Positions 28,722 through 47,541 of a stretch of DNA of 64,000 nucleotides are shown piece after piece (the stretch's first letter is position 1; each line of letters starts with the position of its first letter). The translations under genes and the position numbers were made by a program. The notes below the pieces were generated by a model. That model searched no databases. It worked only from the letters and a program-made list of their open reading frames with translations, and was not told where the DNA came from. This DNA is from Bdellovibrionales bacterium (GTDB lineage Bacteria > Bdellovibrionota > Bdellovibrionia > Bdellovibrionales > CAYMLA01), in the NCBI GenBank assembly GCA_965217115.1, contig OZ244239.1, forward strand, positions 384,001 to 448,000, read 5' to 3'.

Positions 28722-28856
28722 AACCCGTCGCCTGGGGGGAGGGGCTCTTTACTTTCACGCGCAGTTCTTTCGGTGCGATGCTCGCAAAGCGAGCGCCGCA
28801 GCCGCAAGCATGTCTGAGCATGAAAGCAAAGAGCCCCTCCCCCCAGCCGACAGGTT
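28722..28856 (-). repeat. Long hairpin element, stem type A
   Basis: 39-bp inverted repeat (4 mismatches) around gcgcagttc...gctcgc-aaa-gcgagc...atgtctgagc. Confidence 0.9.
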
Positions 28857-32335: not shown

Positions 32336-32379
32336 ATACCTTATATTCCTAAATATTTAAATCTAATTTTACCATTTTT

Positions 32380-32965
32380 TCCCCCAAATCCCTTCTCTCT
32401 CTCCCCCTAACCCCTTTTTCTCTCTCCCCCAAATCCCTTCTCTCTCCCCCAATCCCTTCTCTCTCCCCCAATCCCTTCTCTCTCCCCCAATCCCTTCTCT
32501 CTCCCCCAATCCCTTCTCTCTCCCCAAATCCCTTCTCTCCCCTAAATCCCTTCTCTCTCCCAAATCCCTTCTCTCTCCTAAATCCCTTCTCTCTCCTAAA
32601 TCCCTTCTCTCTCCTAAATCCCTTTCTCTCCCCTAAACCCTTTCTCTCCCCTAAACCCTTTCTCTCCCCCAAATCCCTTCTTTCCCCCAAATCCCTTCTT
32701 TCCCCTAAATCCCTTTCTCTCCCCTAAACCCTTTCTCTCCCCCAAATCCCTTCTTTCCCCCAAATCCCTTCTTTCCCCTAAATCCCTTTCTCTCCCCTAA
32801 ATCCCTTCTCTCCCCTAAATCCCTTCTCTCTCCCAAATCCCTTCTTTCCCCTAAATCCCTTCTTTCCCCTAAATCCCTTCTCCCCTCTAAATCCCTTCTT
32901 TCCCCTAAATCCCTTCTCTCCCCTAAACCCCTTTTTCTCCCCCCCCCCTTCCCCCCCTTAAATCC
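32380..32965. repeat. 17-19-bp minisatellite (aaatcccttctctcccct consensus), roughly 30 copies
   Basis: Seen directly; G-rich on the minus strand. Confidence 0.92.
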
Positions 32966-32982
32966 CCCACCAAAAAACACAC

Positions 32983-33128
32983 GCCTTAAACCAGTGTGCC
33001 TTTTAAATAGAACCCTATCCCCAAGCGCAGTTCTTTTGGCGCGATGCTCGCAAAGCGAGCGCCGCAGCCGAAAGCATGTTTGAGCATTGGGGATAGGGTT
33101 CTATTTAAAAGGCACACTGGTTTAAGGC
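32983..33128 (-). repeat. Long hairpin element, stem type B
   Basis: Perfect 42-bp inverted repeat around a core nearly identical to the one at 28759..28819. Confidence 0.92.
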
Positions 33129-41988: not shown

Positions 41989-42779
41989 CAGTCGTTGAAA
42001 AAAAACCTCTCATGAAAATCCAGAACCTCTCCCTAAATTATAAAAACAGCTCTGCTTTTTCTAATATTAATCTAAATATTCTTCCCCAAGAAGTTCTTGC
42101 CCTCATCGGACCTTCTGGCTCTGGTAAATCTAGTTTTCTAAATTGTTTAAATCAACTCTTCCTCTCTGTCCCCTGTTGCACAGTTGAGGGAAGTATCGAG
42201 TTTGAAGGGCGAGTTATATTAGGGGGAGAGACCACTTCGGCTAAACTGAATCTACAGCATCTCAGGAGAAACATTGGTATGGTCTTTCAAAGACCCCATC
42301 CCTTTCCCAATTCTATTTACAAGAACATGTCCATCCCACTCAAGGAAGTTGGTATTAAGAGTAAAGATTCTATCGATGAAACAATCCATAGAACTTTCTC
42401 AGATGTTGGCCTGTGGGATGAACTAAAAGATCGTCTCCAATCTTCGGCCCTCGAACTCTCAGGAGGTCAGCAACAGAGACTCTGTATTGCCCGAGCCATT
42501 GCTCTTAAACCTAAGCTATTGCTGATGGATGAACCAACAAGTTCACTCGACCCCATCGCCGCGCAAACGATCGAGTCACTCATCACGGAACTCAAGAAAA
42601 AATATGCAGTCGTCATGGTCACACACAATCTTGCCCAAGCTAGACGTATCTCAGATAAATTGGCCCTCATCTACCCTATCAACGGAATAGGTCATTTGAT
42701 TGAATACGGTGAAACAGCCCATCTCTTTAAATCTCCACAGGAAGATCTCACTAAAGAGTATTTTTCAAGGGAACTTTAA
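41985..42779 (+). CDS. pstB: Phosphate ABC ATPase PstB
   Basis: GPSGSGKS, LSGGQQQRLCIARA, MDEPTSSLDP, VTHN. Confidence 0.92.
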   Translation: MTVVEKKPLMKIQNLSLNYKNSSAFSNINLNILPQEVLALIGPSGSGKSSFLNCLNQLFLSVPCCTVEGSIEFEGRVILGGETTSAKLNLQHLRRNIGMVFQRPHPFPNSIYKNMSIPLKEVGIKSKDSIDETIHRTFSDVGLWDELKDRLQSSALELSGGQQQRLCIARAIALKPKLLLMDEPTSSLDPIAAQTIESLITELKKKYAVVMVTHNLAQARRISDKLALIYPINGIGHLIEYGETAHLFKSPQEDLTKEYFSREL

Positions 42780-42783
42780 ACAT

Positions 42784-43491
42784 ATGAAAACTGTCAGTGT
42801 TATTTTCAGCACCCACAACGATGCTAAGAATGGGTTTCTCAAGAAAAGTCTCACCTCCCTATGTGATGAGTCCTCTTGTGAAATCATTGTCGTCAATAAA
42901 AGTGACGAGATCCCCGAACTCTTAAACACACTTCCTGTGAAACTGATCTCCTCCAAAGACCCATCACGGGCAGTGAGACAAAATCTTGGTATTAAAGCCG
43001 CTCAAGGTGATATTATTCTGCTCCACCATCCACGCAGTGTTCTAGAGAGAGGAGCGATTCAGGAACTGACCGAAGCCATGGAAAATCAGATGATCACATG
43101 GGGCTGCTTCACCCATGGGTTTAACATAAAACATCCCCTTCTGCAGTTCACCTCATGGTATTCTAATAAAGTTCGCTGCGATCAAAAGAGCATTGCTTAT
43201 TTAGACCATTGTGTCTTCTTCCGACGCAGCCTACTTGAGAATGACCCCACCCCTGTCCCCGAGGTGGATATCTTTGAAGACACAGAGCTGAGTTTAAAAC
43301 TTAAGAAACTCGGCAAACCGGTACGACTCTCTAAACAGTCTACAACCTCTGCCATTCGTTTTCAAAAGAACGGTGTTTATAGGCAATCTCTTCTCAATCA
43401 AGTGCTTAAGGTGGGTTATGGGTTGGGGGTTTCTGATGGGTGGATGAATCGTCTCTACGAGAAAGGCCTCTCTCTTAATTCTAAATATTAG
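42784..43491 (+). CDS. GT2 glycosyltransferase resembling the TIGR04283 family
   Basis: RAVRQNLG, WGCF, FED, TSAIRF..NG, YGLGVS pattern, matched by eye. Confidence 0.65.
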   Translation: MKTVSVIFSTHNDAKNGFLKKSLTSLCDESSCEIIVVNKSDEIPELLNTLPVKLISSKDPSRAVRQNLGIKAAQGDIILLHHPRSVLERGAIQELTEAMENQMITWGCFTHGFNIKHPLLQFTSWYSNKVRCDQKSIAYLDHCVFFRRSLLENDPTPVPEVDIFEDTELSLKLKKLGKPVRLSKQSTTSAIRFQKNGVYRQSLLNQVLKVGYGLGVSDGWMNRLYEKGLSLNSKY

Positions 43492-43990
43492 GAGCCGTTT
43501 TTAAAATGCCTCTTTATTCTTTAGCTCAGACATTCGGTTGGCAGCGGCGCTCGCTTAGAATATCGGTCGGCTGAAGCGACCGGTATTCTAGGCGAGCATC
43601 GCACCAATCCGAACTCGCTAAAGAACAAAGAGGCATTTTAAAAACTCTCTTTGAACATCTGCGACTGACTGGGCACAACGGGGAAGGGGGATAACGGAGA
43701 GCTTAGAATATCGGTCGGCTGAAGCGCCTGGTATTCTAGGCGAGCATCGCACCAACCGAACTCGCTAAAGAACAAAGAGGCATTTTAAAAACTCTCTTTG
43801 AACATCTGCGACTGACTGGGCACAACGGGGAAGGGGGATAACGGAGAGCTTAGAATATCGGTCGGCTGAAGCGGCTGGTATTCTAGGCGAGCATCGCACC
43901 AACCGAACTCGCTAAAGAACAAAGAGGCATTTTAAAAACTCTCTTTGAACATCTGCGATGGGCTGGGAACAACGGAGGGGGTAGGATGTC
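43492..43990 (+). repeat. Hairpin element stem type C (full copy 43497..43645) plus two tandem right-half copies (period 147-148 bp)
   Basis: 29-bp inverted repeat gtttttaaaatgcctctt...; units restart at 43553, 43701 and 43848. Confidence 0.92.
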
Positions 43991-44012
43991 GGTGCGATCC
44001 ATCGTTAGGACT

Positions 44013-44048
44013 AAAAAAAAATGCCCTCGAGTGAATATCGAAGGCATC
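44013..44048 (-). terminator. Intrinsic terminator of cassette gene A
   Basis: atgccctcga...tcgaaggcat hairpin with a T-run on the minus strand; duplicated at 45325. Confidence 0.75.
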
Positions 44049-44144
44049 TTAATTTTTAACTTGGGCCTTTTATTAACCTGTCCCATTTTTGGGGTACAGA
44101 TCATTAAATTATAGCCTTTTTTTTAAATAAGAAAGTTAATATGC

Positions 44145-44678
44145 TTAATAAACTTTTTTAAAGTAATAGCAATGTCCATAAATATTAGAATTTATCTCTG
44201 GATAACGAGAAACCCGACCCACAAAAAAATCGCTATATTTTTTTAATGAGAAGATTGGAATTCCATCTGTAGATGCTAAAGAGCCCTCCCGTTCCTCGGT
44301 GGTAAAGGTCTGATTATCAGGGCTCCTCATAATTTGTACTATAGCATCCTTAAAATTTGACAAATCATTATCATAATAGTTCGCTGGTACTTTTTTCGCG
44401 TGAAAAAACATCATTTGATGTGCTGTCTTTGGGGGGAAATCGCCACCATTAGCTGGGTCTATATTTATGCGAGATGCTAATAGGCCAGCTATTGGCTTGC
44501 TTGGCGCTTTTGCTGCGTAACATCTTCCAGACCACCAACCAAAAGTTTCTTCTTCTGTAGGTAGGGTTCCTTGGTCATACATCTCTCCGAGTTCTTCAAA
44601 ATTAGTGGGAAACTCTGATGCTCCATGGACATTGCTAAATGCTAGGCATGCTAAGATAACAATAGATAGAAACTTCAT
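44145..44678 (-). CDS. Secreted hypothetical protein, paralogue A
   Basis: Signal peptide, GWWSGRCY and CYYFKKVY; AAGGAG RBS. Confidence 0.85.
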   Translation of the reverse strand: MKFLSIVILACLAFSNVHGASEFPTNFEELGEMYDQGTLPTEEETFGWWSGRCYAAKAPSKPIAGLLASRINIDPANGGDFPPKTAHQMMFFHAKKVPANYYDNDLSNFKDAIVQIMRSPDNQTFTTEEREGSLASTDGIPIFSLKKYSDFFVGRVSRYPEINSNIYGHCYYFKKVY

Positions 44679-44900
44679 TGCAACTCCTTATTTATATTGC
44701 CTATTTGGGCAATGGTTTTATTACGAGCTTTACCGCCCATAAAGTTATTGCGCTTTATTTAAAACACACAGTCTATTTAACAGTTTTTCTATGAATGTCT
44801 ATAATTATAACAATAAATTGACTCGTTCCTAAAAAACCTGCGGTGCGGGAAACTAGGTAAAAACAAGTGTTTAAACAAGGCATTTGATTCTAAATGTTCG

Positions 44901-45245
44901 AAGCCGTTTTTAAAATGCCTCTTTGTTCTTTAGCTCAGACATTCGGTTGGCAGCGGCGCTCGCCTAGAATATCGGTCGCTGGAGCGACCGGTATTCTGAG
45001 CGAGCATCGCACCAATCCGAACTCGCTAAAGAACAAAGAGGCATTTTAAAAACTCTCTTTGAACATCTGCGATGGGCTGGGAACAACGGAGAGCTTAGAA
45101 TATCGGTCGCTGGGGCGATCGGTATTCTAGGCGAGCATTGCACCAACCGAACTCGCTAAAGAACAGAGAGGTATTTTAAAAACTCTCTTTGAACATCTGC
45201 GATGGGCTGGGAACAACGGAGAGCTTAGAATATCGGTCGCTGGAG
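44901..45245 (+). repeat. Hairpin element stem type C (full copy 44906..45053) plus partial tandem copies (period about 130 bp)
   Basis: Same sequence family as 43497..43645. Confidence 0.92.
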
Positions 45246-45324
45246 GGGATAAGACAATTGAAGATGTAAAAAAAATACCGGAGAAAATAAAGTATTATAA
45301 CCATAGCGATTCATCGTTAGGACT

Positions 45325-45359
45325 AAAAAAAATGCCCTCGAGTGAATATCGAAGGCATC
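45325..45359 (-). terminator. Intrinsic terminator of cassette gene B
   Basis: Same hairpin as 44013..44048. Confidence 0.75.
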
Positions 45360-45453
45360 TTAATTTTTAACTTGGGCCTTTTATTAACCTGTCCCATTTT
45401 TGGGGTACAGATCATTAAATTATAGCTTTTTTTAGATAGGAAAGTTAATACAC

Positions 45454-46002
45454 TTAATAAACTTTTTTAAAGAAATAGCAATTTGAATAAACATCACCAG
45501 CGCGCCATCTGTGCTTACCATTGGATGTAGAACCATCTTGATTAACAATAGCTTGGCCTATAAAATAATTTTCATATTTTCTTAGTGCAAAATCTAAATT
45601 AAGTGGTGTATATGCATATAAAGAATTGTCTCTTTTTTTAACAATAATTCTTCTGTTTTCTTCAGTGTTTATAAGTTCTTCTACCTCAACCTTAAATTCT
45701 AATAAATTATTGTCAAAGTAGTCAGCTGCTTGTTTTGATCCATGACGAAGAAAGACCATTTGATGCGTCTTTGAAGGTTCATCTGTAATCATCCTAGATA
45801 CTAATAGGTTAGGTAATGGATTACTTGGCATTAATACATCGTAACATCTTCCAGACCACCAACCAAAAGTTTCTTCTTTTGTAGGCAGGGTTCCTTGGTC
45901 AAACATCTCTCCCAGTTCTTCAAAATCAGTGGAAAGCTCTGATGCTCCATGGACACTGCTAAATGCTAGGCATGATAAGATAACAATAGATAGAAACTTC
46001 AT
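45454..46002 (-). CDS. Secreted hypothetical protein, paralogue B
   Basis: Near-identical N-terminus to A, CYFFKKVY end. Confidence 0.85.
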   Translation of the reverse strand: MKFLSIVILSCLAFSSVHGASELSTDFEELGEMFDQGTLPTKEETFGWWSGRCYDVLMPSNPLPNLLVSRMITDEPSKTHQMVFLRHGSKQAADYFDNNLLEFKVEVEELINTEENRRIIVKKRDNSLYAYTPLNLDFALRKYENYFIGQAIVNQDGSTSNGKHRWRAGDVYSNCYFFKKVY

Positions 46003-46224
46003 TGCAACTCCTTATTTATATTGCCTATTTGGGCAATGGTTTTATTACGAGCTTTACCGCCCATAAAGTTATTGCGCTTTATTTAAAACACACAGTCTAT
46101 TTAACAGTTTTTCTATGAATGTCTATAATTATAACAATAAATTGACTCGTTCCTAAAAAACCTGCGGTGCGGAAAACTAGGTAAAAACAAATATTTAACC
46201 AAGGCCTTTGATTCTAAATGTTAG

Positions 46225-46470
46225 ACGCCGTTTTTAAAATGACTCTTTATTCTTTAGCTCAGACATTCGGTTGGCAGCGGCGCTCGCTTAGAATATCGGT
46301 CGCTAAAGCGACCGGTATTCTAAGTGAGCATCGCACCAATCCGAACTCGCTAAAGAACAAAGAGGCATTTTAAAAACTCTCTTTGAACATCTGCGACTGA
46401 CTGGGCACAACGGAGAAGGGGGACAACGGAGGGGGTAGAATATCGGTCGCTGGGGGGACTGGTATTCTAA
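46225..46470 (+). repeat. Hairpin element stem type C (full copy 46230..46377) plus a degenerate partial copy
   Basis: Same family; followed by a poly-G/GAAA purine tract to about 46530. Confidence 0.9.
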
Positions 46471-46542
46471 GGGGGGGGGGGGGAGAGGGAGGGAAAGAAA
46501 GAGAAAGAAAGAAAGAAAGAAAGAAAAAGAGATATATAAAAT

Positions 46543-47541
46543 TTAGGGGGTGAGGAAGCCGGTTTTTTTGTAGACGTTTTTTAGGGTTTTGTGGGCGATT
46601 TCTTTTGCTCGTAGGGCGTTTGTTTTTAGCATTGACTCTAGATAAGTTTGATCCTGTATAAGTTTGTCGTACTCTTCACGCACGGGGCGTAACACATCAC
46701 AAACTAGGTCCGCCGTGGCCACCTTGAAATGTCCATAGAGTTTTCCTGAAAACTCTTTTTCTATCTCAGGTAAACTCATTCCCGATAGACAGGAGTAAAT
46801 CGTCATTAAATTAGCAATGCCCGCCTTGCCCTCAAGGTCATAGGTGACCTCCTCTCCGGAGTCTGTAACGGCGGATTTAATTTTCTTTTGAATTTTGTTT
46901 TCTGGATCAATCACTGATACGTAGGCCCCAGGCAAACAGTCTGATTTAGACATCTTAGACATCGGGTCCTTCAGAGACATCACCCTTGCCCCCAATTTAT
47001 TAATCAAAGGTTCTGGGATAACAAAGGCCTGGCCATGGCGTTTATTAAACTGCTCCGCCAAATCGCGGGTCAACTCCAAGTGTTGCTTTTGATCTTCTCC
47101 CACGGGAACCAAATTTGTCTGATAAAGTAATATATCTGCAGCCATCAATACAGGATAAGTAAAGAGCCCTGTATTGATGTTTTTAGGGTCACTCTCTGAT
47201 TTATCCTTAAACTGTGTCATTCTCCTTAGAGAACCCATCGGAGTTAAGCAACTCAAAACCCAAGCAAGCTCCGTGTGTTCACTCACATGGGACTGCATGA
47301 AAATAATATTTTTCTCTGGGTCTAAACCGCAGGCCAAATACTGAGCAATAAAGGACAAACTCCTCTGGCGCAACTCCTTAGGGTCCTGCCTCACAGTGAT
47401 TGAATGGAGATCCGCCGCCATATAGAGACAGCTATACTCATCCTGCATCTTCGCCCAATTAGAAACAGCGCCGATGTAATTGCCTATGGTCAGAACACCT
47501 GTGGTCGTACTCGCACTTAGAACTGTTTTTTTATCTGCCAT
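46543..47541 (-). CDS. trpS: Tryptophanyl-tRNA synthetase
   Basis: TIGN, YPVLMAADIL, VPVGEDQ, KMSKS. Confidence 0.96.
   Translation of the reverse strand: MADKKTVLSASTTTGVLTIGNYIGAVSNWAKMQDEYSCLYMAADLHSITVRQDPKELRQRSLSFIAQYLACGLDPEKNIIFMQSHVSEHTELAWVLSCLTPMGSLRRMTQFKDKSESDPKNINTGLFTYPVLMAADILLYQTNLVPVGEDQKQHLELTRDLAEQFNKRHGQAFVIPEPLINKLGARVMSLKDPMSKMSKSDCLPGAYVSVIDPENKIQKKIKSAVTDSGEEVTYDLEGKAGIANLMTIYSCLSGMSLPEIEKEFSGKLYGHFKVATADLVCDVLRPVREEYDKLIQDQTYLESMLKTNALRAKEIAHKTLKNVYKKTGFLTP

Follow-up and report, generated by a model that had tools for sequence, protein, structure and literature searches.

Near-identical flanks and divergent bodies in a hairpin-bracketed pair of secreted-protein genes from a Bdellovibrionales genome

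Multi-copy intergenic imperfect palindromes, often situated after stop codons, single or clustered, lineage-restricted and recombinogenic, are familiar as the REP/BIME, ERIC/IRU and Correia (CREE/NEMIS) families; REP has a cognate RAYT (REP-associated tyrosine transposase), and Correia has a transposase and a target duplication. Integron attC arrays and CALINs (clusters of attC sites lacking integron integrases) likewise place structured palindromes between mostly co-oriented genes; attC sites have a conserved R''/R' base and a variable centre, and the cassettes are mostly promoterless, unrelated open reading frames (ORFs), one per cassette. In the Erp and Mlp lipoprotein families of Borrelia, an 'upstream homology box' and a constant upstream region and leader are combined with variable mature parts, and gene conversion takes place. 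Here we describe a locus that resembles each of these in part. It lies in a 64,000-nt stretch of a Bdellovibrionales genome (G000:C1:384001-448000, hereafter the window; the genome is a single contig of 2,170,531 bp, with 39.6% GC and 99.4% completeness) and comprises two paralogous genes for small secreted proteins, A and B, bracketed and separated by three copies of an imperfect palindrome, H1, H2 and H3.

We consider that this array probably arose through tandem duplication mediated by repeats, together with gene conversion, and that the secreted beta-barrel family it belongs to is evolving under diversifying selection. The locus is best read as a gene family prone to recombination that lies next to a common repeat, with no dedicated cassette machine. 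Its parts follow in the order glycosyltransferase (GT) gene, H1, terminator-like site, gene A, H2, terminator-like site, gene B, H3, trpS, at the following positions of the window (R1 is the covariance model of the palindrome described below):

42700-43491, plus strand: ORF for a family-2 GT (PF00535, 31.2 bits, cut-off 23.3)
43497-43645, no strand assigned: H1, a 149-nt imperfect palindrome with the family core and a 37-nt apex hairpin (R1, 158.5 bits)
43553-43975, plus strand: tandem repeat, period 147 nt, 2.9 copies, 97% matches (tandem-repeat analysis)
44018-44050, minus strand: intrinsic-terminator-like hairpin of 13 pairs with a T-run, 3' of gene A, with an identical copy at 45329-45361
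44145-44678, minus strand: gene A, 177 aa (ORF; AlphaFold2 model)
44679-44905, minus strand: upstream region of gene A, with a TATAAT-containing block and a 5' untranslated region (UTR) of ~130 nt, and continuing into H2's left basal arm
44906-45053, no strand assigned: H2, 148 nt; with its basal extension ~44894-45064 (DNA fold, -67.2 kcal/mol)
44965-45245, plus strand: tandem repeat, period 130 nt, 2.2 copies, made of partial hairpin copies (tandem-repeat analysis)
45329-45361, minus strand: terminator-like hairpin with a T-run, 3' of gene B, identical to the gene A copy
45454-46002, minus strand: gene B, 182 aa (ORF, comparisons, trees)
46003-46229, minus strand: upstream region of gene B, conserved (alignment to the gene A copy)
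46230-46377, no strand assigned: H3, 148 nt (R1 match, fold)
46378-46526, plus strand: right flank of H3, G-rich tail, degenerate apex copy, poly-G run and (GAAA)9 (sequence, repeat analysis)
46543-47541, minus strand: trpS (ORF)

Each unit is self-sufficient, with a promoter-like block, a 5'UTR, a secreted protein gene and a terminator-like site; the units measure 1,409 bp from the start of H1 to that of H2, and 1,324 bp from the start of H2 to that of H3. These coordinates bear out the repeated hairpin, terminator, gene and upstream-region layout put forward in a preliminary description of the locus. The near-identity of the non-coding flanks claimed there holds as well: 44014-44093 and 45325-45404 agree at 80/80 positions, and 44661-44860 and 45985-46184 at 199/200. 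So does its account of the two proteins, which are identical at 87/189 residues overall and differ at 7 of the first 54; both keep the C-terminal CY(Y/F)FKKVY (CYYFKKVY in A), and the middles of the genes carry indels and show 13-28 identities per 40-column window. Gene A encodes a signal-peptide-like N-terminus, a conserved leader up to GWWSGRCY and an A-type barrel body; gene B has the same leader and C-terminal motif around a B-type body of deep lineage.

The two genes belong to a family with eight paralogs in this genome (tblastn), tandem and dispersed, and it is in this family that the mosaic structure becomes plain. Among seven paralogs the first 165 nt of the coding sequence are 90-97% identical and the middles 60-83% (94% in one pair), so that the conserved leader is a family-wide trait and not one local to A and B. 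Trees of the different segments disagree. The upstream region plus leader joins A with B (support 99/99), as does the 3' end plus downstream region (99/97), which also joins P753 with P1566 (99/99). The middle instead separates B and P788 from the other six, A included (99/98). P753 is itself mosaic, being P1561-like upstream (82/79) and P1566-like downstream (99/99), and P1560 and P1563 have a common middle (100/99) and different downstream regions. Outside this genome, the protein P0003 of another assembly differs from our P1566 by 5 residues, all at positions 10-45, and by none in the other 134. The well-supported disagreement between the trees of flanks and middles, together with this leader-only difference, shows segment exchange between family members to be real and ongoing; conflicting, well-supported segment trees are what marks a tandem family with gene conversion. 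The exchange uses the conserved blocks of the family itself, not the hairpins.

The flanks and the middle of gene B differ greatly in apparent age, with branch lengths of 0.015-0.04 in the flanks and 0.45 for the middle, and with dS of 0.56-0.75 in the mature region and 0.06-0.12 in the leader. The branch lengths would also suit a very recent tandem duplication that produced A and B, followed by replacement of the middle of one copy with a B-type allele from another strain, imported by homologous recombination that used the leader and the C-terminal block as anchors; flank identity of 97-100% is in keeping with this. No donor for the middle of B is present in the genome, where the nearest sequence is 62-65% identical at the nucleotide level, and B-type bodies do occur in other assemblies: P0007 is 55% identical to the mature part of B and 31-38% to the A types. 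The leader swap between P0003 and P1566 is likewise of strain-level kind. We regard such a recent import as possible, though on the doubtful side. P0006 (A-type) and P0007 (B-type) each come from a 6,550-base contig, and if this is one contig, which is suggested by the equal size only, an A+B pair predates this genome and old paralogs whose flanks were homogenised afterwards are favoured. Moreover, H1, H2 and H3 are only 93-95% identical to one another, below the 99-100% of the gene flanks.

Selection on the mature part was gauged by pairwise Nei-Gojobori dN/dS, a crude measure on short, recombination-affected genes, which came to 1.1-2.3 among the six A-type paralogs and to 6.1 in the closest pair, P1560 and P1563 (genome 1560497-1561027 and 1563505-1564035; L207). 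This agrees with the earlier suggestion that an exported protein is being diversified. The closest pair differs at 31 nucleotides, 27 of them in codon positions 1-2 and not adenine-specific, and the differences cluster in four patches (aa 55-58, 94-98, 139-141 and 157-159), which are probably barrel loops. A diversity-generating retroelement was considered and rejected: the only reverse transcriptase of the genome is retron-like and distant, and the 31 differences involve all four bases. Nor does the genome hold a near-identical template for the middle of A or B.

The fold itself was approached by modelling. An AlphaFold2 model of A (100 sequences; pLDDT 90.5, pTM 0.83) predicts a helix at the N-terminus and, after it, an antiparallel sheet; the two conserved Cys residues sit on the outermost strands of the sheet, the first and the last, and a disulfide between them would close the barrel. 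The best structural matches of the model are small up-and-down barrels (VIA-align Z 5-7, best 7.0); in the PDB, Foldseek had nothing at E <= 0.001 (best E 0.02), and a sequence-profile search found no sequence relative there. No Pfam or NCBIfam family was found for A, B or their relatives. A language-model lead to GXWXG/DUF4334 (PF14231, PF14232), at 0.84 and below the 0.9 line, and the GWWSG motif are not borne out by hmmscan, which returned neither domain when A and B were searched with E values up to 1, nor for 100 members at E up to 0.01. Only 10 close proteins came up in a word-based protein search; a profile run against 1.84 billion representatives gave 460 at E <= 0.001, of which 166 reached E <= 1e-10, in metagenome clusters, and a metagenome scan for family loci gave one weak locus. 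Family copies, 1-3 each, are carried by 20/300 other genomes of the order. The A/B family is an eight-member, lineage-restricted and uncharacterised family of small secreted beta-barrels.

Two features of the conserved upstream block deserve mention in their own right. The 5'UTR of ~130 nt (44679-44810 in A) is kept in 7/8 paralogs, with a small hairpin ATTGCC...GGCAAT before the ribosome-binding site, and may be a shared regulatory leader. On the plus strand, a near-consensus sigma-70-like site (TTAACA, 17 nt, TATAAT; 11/12) occurs at 44777-44805 and 46101-46129; it is directed away from the genes, toward the hairpins, and forms a palindrome with the TATAAT expected to serve genes A and B themselves.

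The hairpins turned out to be members of a much larger family. H1 had 106 BLAST matches in the genome; a single-sequence nhmmer search gave 64 loci and an iterated nhmmer profile 80, of which the 62 that reached 49 bits and covered 90 or more profile positions were taken as full copies. The covariance model R1, built from 29 copies that all lie outside the A/B locus, had 63 matches at 62 places, with H1-H3 among these at 148-158 bits. The element is an imperfect palindrome of 110-175 nt, ~110 nt in most copies; the 37-nt apex hairpin is found only in the copies at the A/B locus and is absent from the other copies in the genome. Across the 29 aligned copies the central core is invariant and asymmetric and has conserved bulges, and the stem of ~26 bp varies between clusters yet remains paired, with compensatory changes at 28/40 predicted pairs. 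The DNA fold of H1 plus its flanks has an energy of -59.8 kcal/mol (z -9.7; none of 200 shuffles equalled it), and the 29-nt arms of H1-H3 are 93-100% complementary.

The flanks of the element are conserved too: a TTGATTTTGGCAAAG-like motif lies on the left and a CTTTGAAATC...TGACTGGGAACARCGGGG-like motif on the right. The inner left and right motifs pair and lengthen the palindrome, as in H2, where DNA folding pairs ATGTTCGAAG with CTTTGAACAT. This bears directly on a further observation of the preliminary description. TT(A/G)ATTCTAAAT(A/G)TT does stand before H1, H2 and H3, its first copy within the last codons of the GT gene, and the repeat family containing the ATTCTAAAT block is 94-95% identical over 95 nt among the three local copies. 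The reading of this motif as a target site regenerated at each cassette boundary did not survive. ATTCTAAAT(A/G)TT pairs with ...TTTGAACAT... on the right side of the palindrome, and because the left and right inner motifs pair on folding it is the local version of the element's left basal arm and not a target-site duplication. The last codons and stop of the GT gene simply overlap the left basal arm of H1.

Placement of the element is strict. For 20/62 copies an ORF of at least 100 aa lies within 60 nt on the 5' side, and 20/20 such ORFs are co-oriented with the element, which begins 5-40 nt past the stop codon or slightly overlaps it; by eye, the stop is often the TGA inside the element's left motif. 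On the 3' side only 2 ORFs are equally close, and both are on the opposite strand. The copies are intergenic, located between ORFs, and occur in three settings: singly, in gene-free tandem arrays (at genome 118k, 351k, 717k and 1924k), and as separators of small gene modules. The majority are solitary and stand behind housekeeping-type genes. Among relatives, 6/9 copies are likewise behind a co-oriented gene, and the G-rich tail described next is missing there.

The 100 nt past the right flank are G-rich on the element strand (34.9% G against 19.9% for the genome) and carry ~11-nt repeats of the GGGAACARCGG type, and 37/74 genomic G4-type motifs lie within ~250 nt 3' of an element, on its strand. 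The GGGAACARCGG-type repeats resemble the left half of the hairpin core. Two further copies of the hairpin family lie elsewhere in the window:

28743-28836 and 33002-33110, minus strand: further copies of the hairpin family, each downstream of a co-oriented gene

After the copy at 33002-33110, a G-rich repeat tract (~32349-32980) reads as ORFs that are spurious and contain repeats like GERRDLGERRDL. A run of ~13 G followed by (GAAA)9 at 46467-46526, in the interval from H3 to the trpS end, is likely to be slippage-prone.

Folded as RNA, the element does better on the strand opposite the upstream gene in 54/62 copies (by 7.4 kcal/mol on average; 217 against 85 G-U pairs), and at the A/B locus the better-folding strand is that of genes A and B. 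This preference may reflect either function or mutation bias. Promoter readings of the flanks (sigma-54 and sigma-70) and an intrinsic-terminator reading of the palindrome were dropped because spacings were inconsistent, by eye and in a terminator and promoter scan, and because no T-run follows the stem. Rfam gave no match at gathering score across the whole window, and on five copies of the element gave only microRNA-precursor look-alikes, far under the gathering score. Most likely the palindrome is a structured extragenic repeat like the REP, ERIC and Correia elements, perhaps one with a role at transcript 3' ends.

The taxonomic range of the element that we can give is a lower bound. R1 found the core in 5/40 other genomes of the order, from five different families, with 1-22 matches each, and none in the single genome of the same family (670 contigs). 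In a pattern scan of a species collection, used as a specificity check only, 8 of the 80 loci listed (from at least 113 stretches) were R1-positive, all 8 with titles of Bdellovibrionota type (Bdellovibrionota, Bdellovibrionales, Bdellovibrionaceae or Pseudobdellovibrionaceae), and none of the other 72 was. A literature search on palindromic and intergenic repeats in Bdellovibrio, judged on the titles and abstract openings of the papers listed, turned up no account of such a repeat.

Could the palindrome be a mobile element in its own right, namely a non-autonomous transposable element like a miniature inverted-repeat transposable element (MITE), inserted separately beside each gene, with the array as a by-product of transposition? 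Its 62 places in a 2.17-Mb genome and patchy occurrence across the families of the order would suit such an origin, and its inverted basal motifs, GATTTTGGCAAAG paired with CTTTGAAATC, resemble terminal inverted repeats. We nevertheless judge it very improbable. The stems are cluster-specific yet complementary, which is unexpected if one transposase reads fixed ends, and a listing of the element flanks revealed no target-site duplication. PF01797 (Y1/RAYT, an HUH transposase) had no match in the genome, other transposase families not having been searched. Finally, the local hairpins share flanks far past the element, and so were co-duplicated with the genes.

The preliminary description had gone further and proposed a cassette-gain or segment-exchange system with the hairpins as cassette boundaries. 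Of this, segment exchange is upheld by the conflicting trees, and the cassette system is not; neither an integron integrase above cut-off nor a Y1 transposase was found. Its most explicit form would make the hairpin the recombination site of a cassette system, attC-like or Xer-dependent, in which circular modules of gene plus hairpin integrate behind stop codons; we hold this to be unlikely. Islets of secreted-protein genes would have been built in this way, with A and B as two such cassettes, a prospect that seems to us equally slight. Several features do suit it. Modules are bounded by direct hairpin copies that repeat ~30 nt of the end of the upstream gene, arrays start at gene 3' ends, and the core is asymmetric, conserved and bulged, with one preferred folding strand. 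Unrelated genes occupy the modules of the 474-483k array. A hairpin at genome 529614 seems by eye to have arms of two different local types; the automated comparison was mis-anchored there, so that this is unconfirmed and was not counted.

The search for an enzyme argues against a cassette system. The genome has three tyrosine recombinase genes (PF00589), none near any hairpin array; their best model matches are XerC, XerD and, for a weak third, an archaeal XerA-type recombinase (74.9 bits, cut-off 220). No integron integrase is above cut-off (TIGR02249 at most 120.7 bits against 265). The sole reverse transcriptase is retron-like (genome 1868366-1869313, L065; NF038233 at 130.6 bits, under the cut-off of 235) and is not near any hairpin array. 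By eye, the core of the element shows no likeness to the B. bacteriovorus dif site as given in the excerpted text of PMC2731167.

The arms of the palindromes speak in the same direction. Of the 49 copies scored in the arm comparison, 46 have matches at 23-29 of 29 positions and the other 3, with low values, reflect slips in anchoring; a further 13 had no anchor. Arms are similar inside one array and different between arrays, so that local copying fits better than travelling cassettes. A conserved centre with variable stems is the reverse of what is known of attC, and the modules own promoter-like and terminator-like sites. The hairpins also fail as boundaries of the gene family. The preliminary description had proposed to test whether further members are flanked by the hairpin and its motif. 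The other 6 paralogs have no hairpin closer than 450 nt, and R1 detected no copy at 9 homologue loci of relatives nor in this genome's 1559-1562.5 kb cluster; the palindrome itself occupies 62 places. Homologues free of hairpins had been named there as one of two joint signs against the proposal, and 6 paralogs and 9 homologue loci are so. It is also improbable that the core is the attachment or crossover site of an unknown, integrase-free Bdellovibrionota system that stacks secreted-protein modules behind the stop codons of resident genes; were this true, the A/B, 474k and 1814k arrays would be its products and the better-folding strand the recombined one.

We return, then, to repeat-mediated duplication and gene conversion. 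Partial tandem copies, absent from the preliminary description, adjoin H1 (period 147, 2.9 copies) and H2 (130, 2.2 copies) and contain apex, right half and right flank; at H1 the apex part is the apex hairpin, and each 147-nt copy also takes in the G-rich tail. Tandem paralogs are also seen in other hairpin-bounded arrays, as in a pair of 363 and 362 aa with 75% identity and in the 1814-1823k set. Repeat-mediated exchange or template switching is indicated because of these partial copies and tandem paralogs, together with the gene-free arrays. The module genes mostly have signal-peptide-like N-termini. In one hairpin-bounded module (genome 1909295-1910883), two adjacent genes for secreted proteins share 81% identity over 42 aa at the N-terminus and 45% in the body.

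In the mechanism that we envisage, direct repeats formed by the palindrome and its flanks would drive unequal crossing-over or template switching, giving hairpin, gene, hairpin, gene, hairpin, and the same events would yield the partial hairpin copies beside H1 and H2. Conversion would be anchored by two constant blocks, one 5' (the upstream region, the 5'UTR and the leader of 54 residues) and one 3' (CY(Y/F)FKKVY plus terminator); it would keep the flanks near-identical, with the body of the barrel, from one conserved Cys to the other, diverging under diversifying selection. Gene B would then be an old B-type body in flanks lately homogenised with those of A. The data show the repeat family, its placement, the mosaic histories and dN/dS above 1; the order of these events, and the sufficiency of general recombination for them, we infer.

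Several points weigh against this account. Three hairpins around two genes are more than a single simple duplication can give, and call for a prior hairpin-gene-hairpin state whose origin the account does not explain. The ~30 nt of the GT gene end repeated before H2 and H3 are also the footprint expected of integration at a gene's 3' end. By eye, the module genes lie mostly on the strand opposite the element; integron cassettes are likewise mostly co-oriented. That the strand of A and B is the better-folding one, given the 54/62 and 217 against 85 figures, is not predicted by simple duplication. The dN/dS values share in the crudeness of their method, and since the genome has no donor for B, import from outside is as possible as old divergence.

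Data from relatives and from reads add some detail. The GT gene is not conserved in the 5 relatives searched, where it had a single weak match (22 bits), and R1 found no hairpin at the trpS loci of 5 relatives. Reads were available as Logan contigs, which break at repeats, from four runs of one sample in one study. In two runs a variant carries 21 other letters in place of 45493-45554. A joint 43555>44999, in one read contig (side 29), was considered as a deletion and is better taken as another hairpin copy without the apex.

In conclusion, an apparent cassette machine resolves into two testable things, a palindrome family and a secreted barrel family, neither of which is categorically new. 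The palindrome family, which occurs across the Bdellovibrionota, is undescribed and marks the borders of secreted-gene islets, and thus offers a handle on secretome remodelling in predator-like bacteria. The barrel family, with constant leader blocks, mosaic bodies and dN/dS above 1, bears what would be an arms-race signature, and its members might serve, for example, as binders or inhibitors aimed at prey or competitor molecules. In its predicted fold, A is like the calycin-type eight-stranded barrels (lipocalins, nitrobindin, PliC, potempins and staphostatins; Z 5-7), a likeness that, with Z below 8 and a Foldseek E of 0.02 at best, extends to a common arrangement only. As in Borrelia Erp and Mlp, the promoter, 5'UTR and signal block is near-identical and the exported domain divergent, trees conflict, and genes are both tandem and dispersed. 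Unlike those families, this one is chromosomal and belongs to the Bdellovibrionota, its product is a disulfide-capable beta-barrel without a Pfam family, and CY(Y/F)FKKVY serves as its 3' anchor.

The palindrome, for its part, shares with REP, ERIC and Correia elements a multi-copy, intergenic, lineage-restricted and recombinogenic character, a length of 100-175 nt, and positions after stops and between convergent genes, single or clustered. It departs from them in its asymmetric conserved centre and freely covarying stem of ~26 bp, in its strict orientation to the upstream gene (20/20) and GGGAACARCGG-type G-rich tail, and in having neither a RAYT/Y1 gene nor an Rfam family. With integron and CALIN arrays it has in common direct palindromes between mostly co-oriented genes, one better-folding strand and similar repeats within each array. 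Unlike attC arrays, it comes without an integron integrase, its centre is conserved and its stems vary, the A and B modules are paralogous and own a TATAAT block and a terminator-like site, and most of its copies stand alone.

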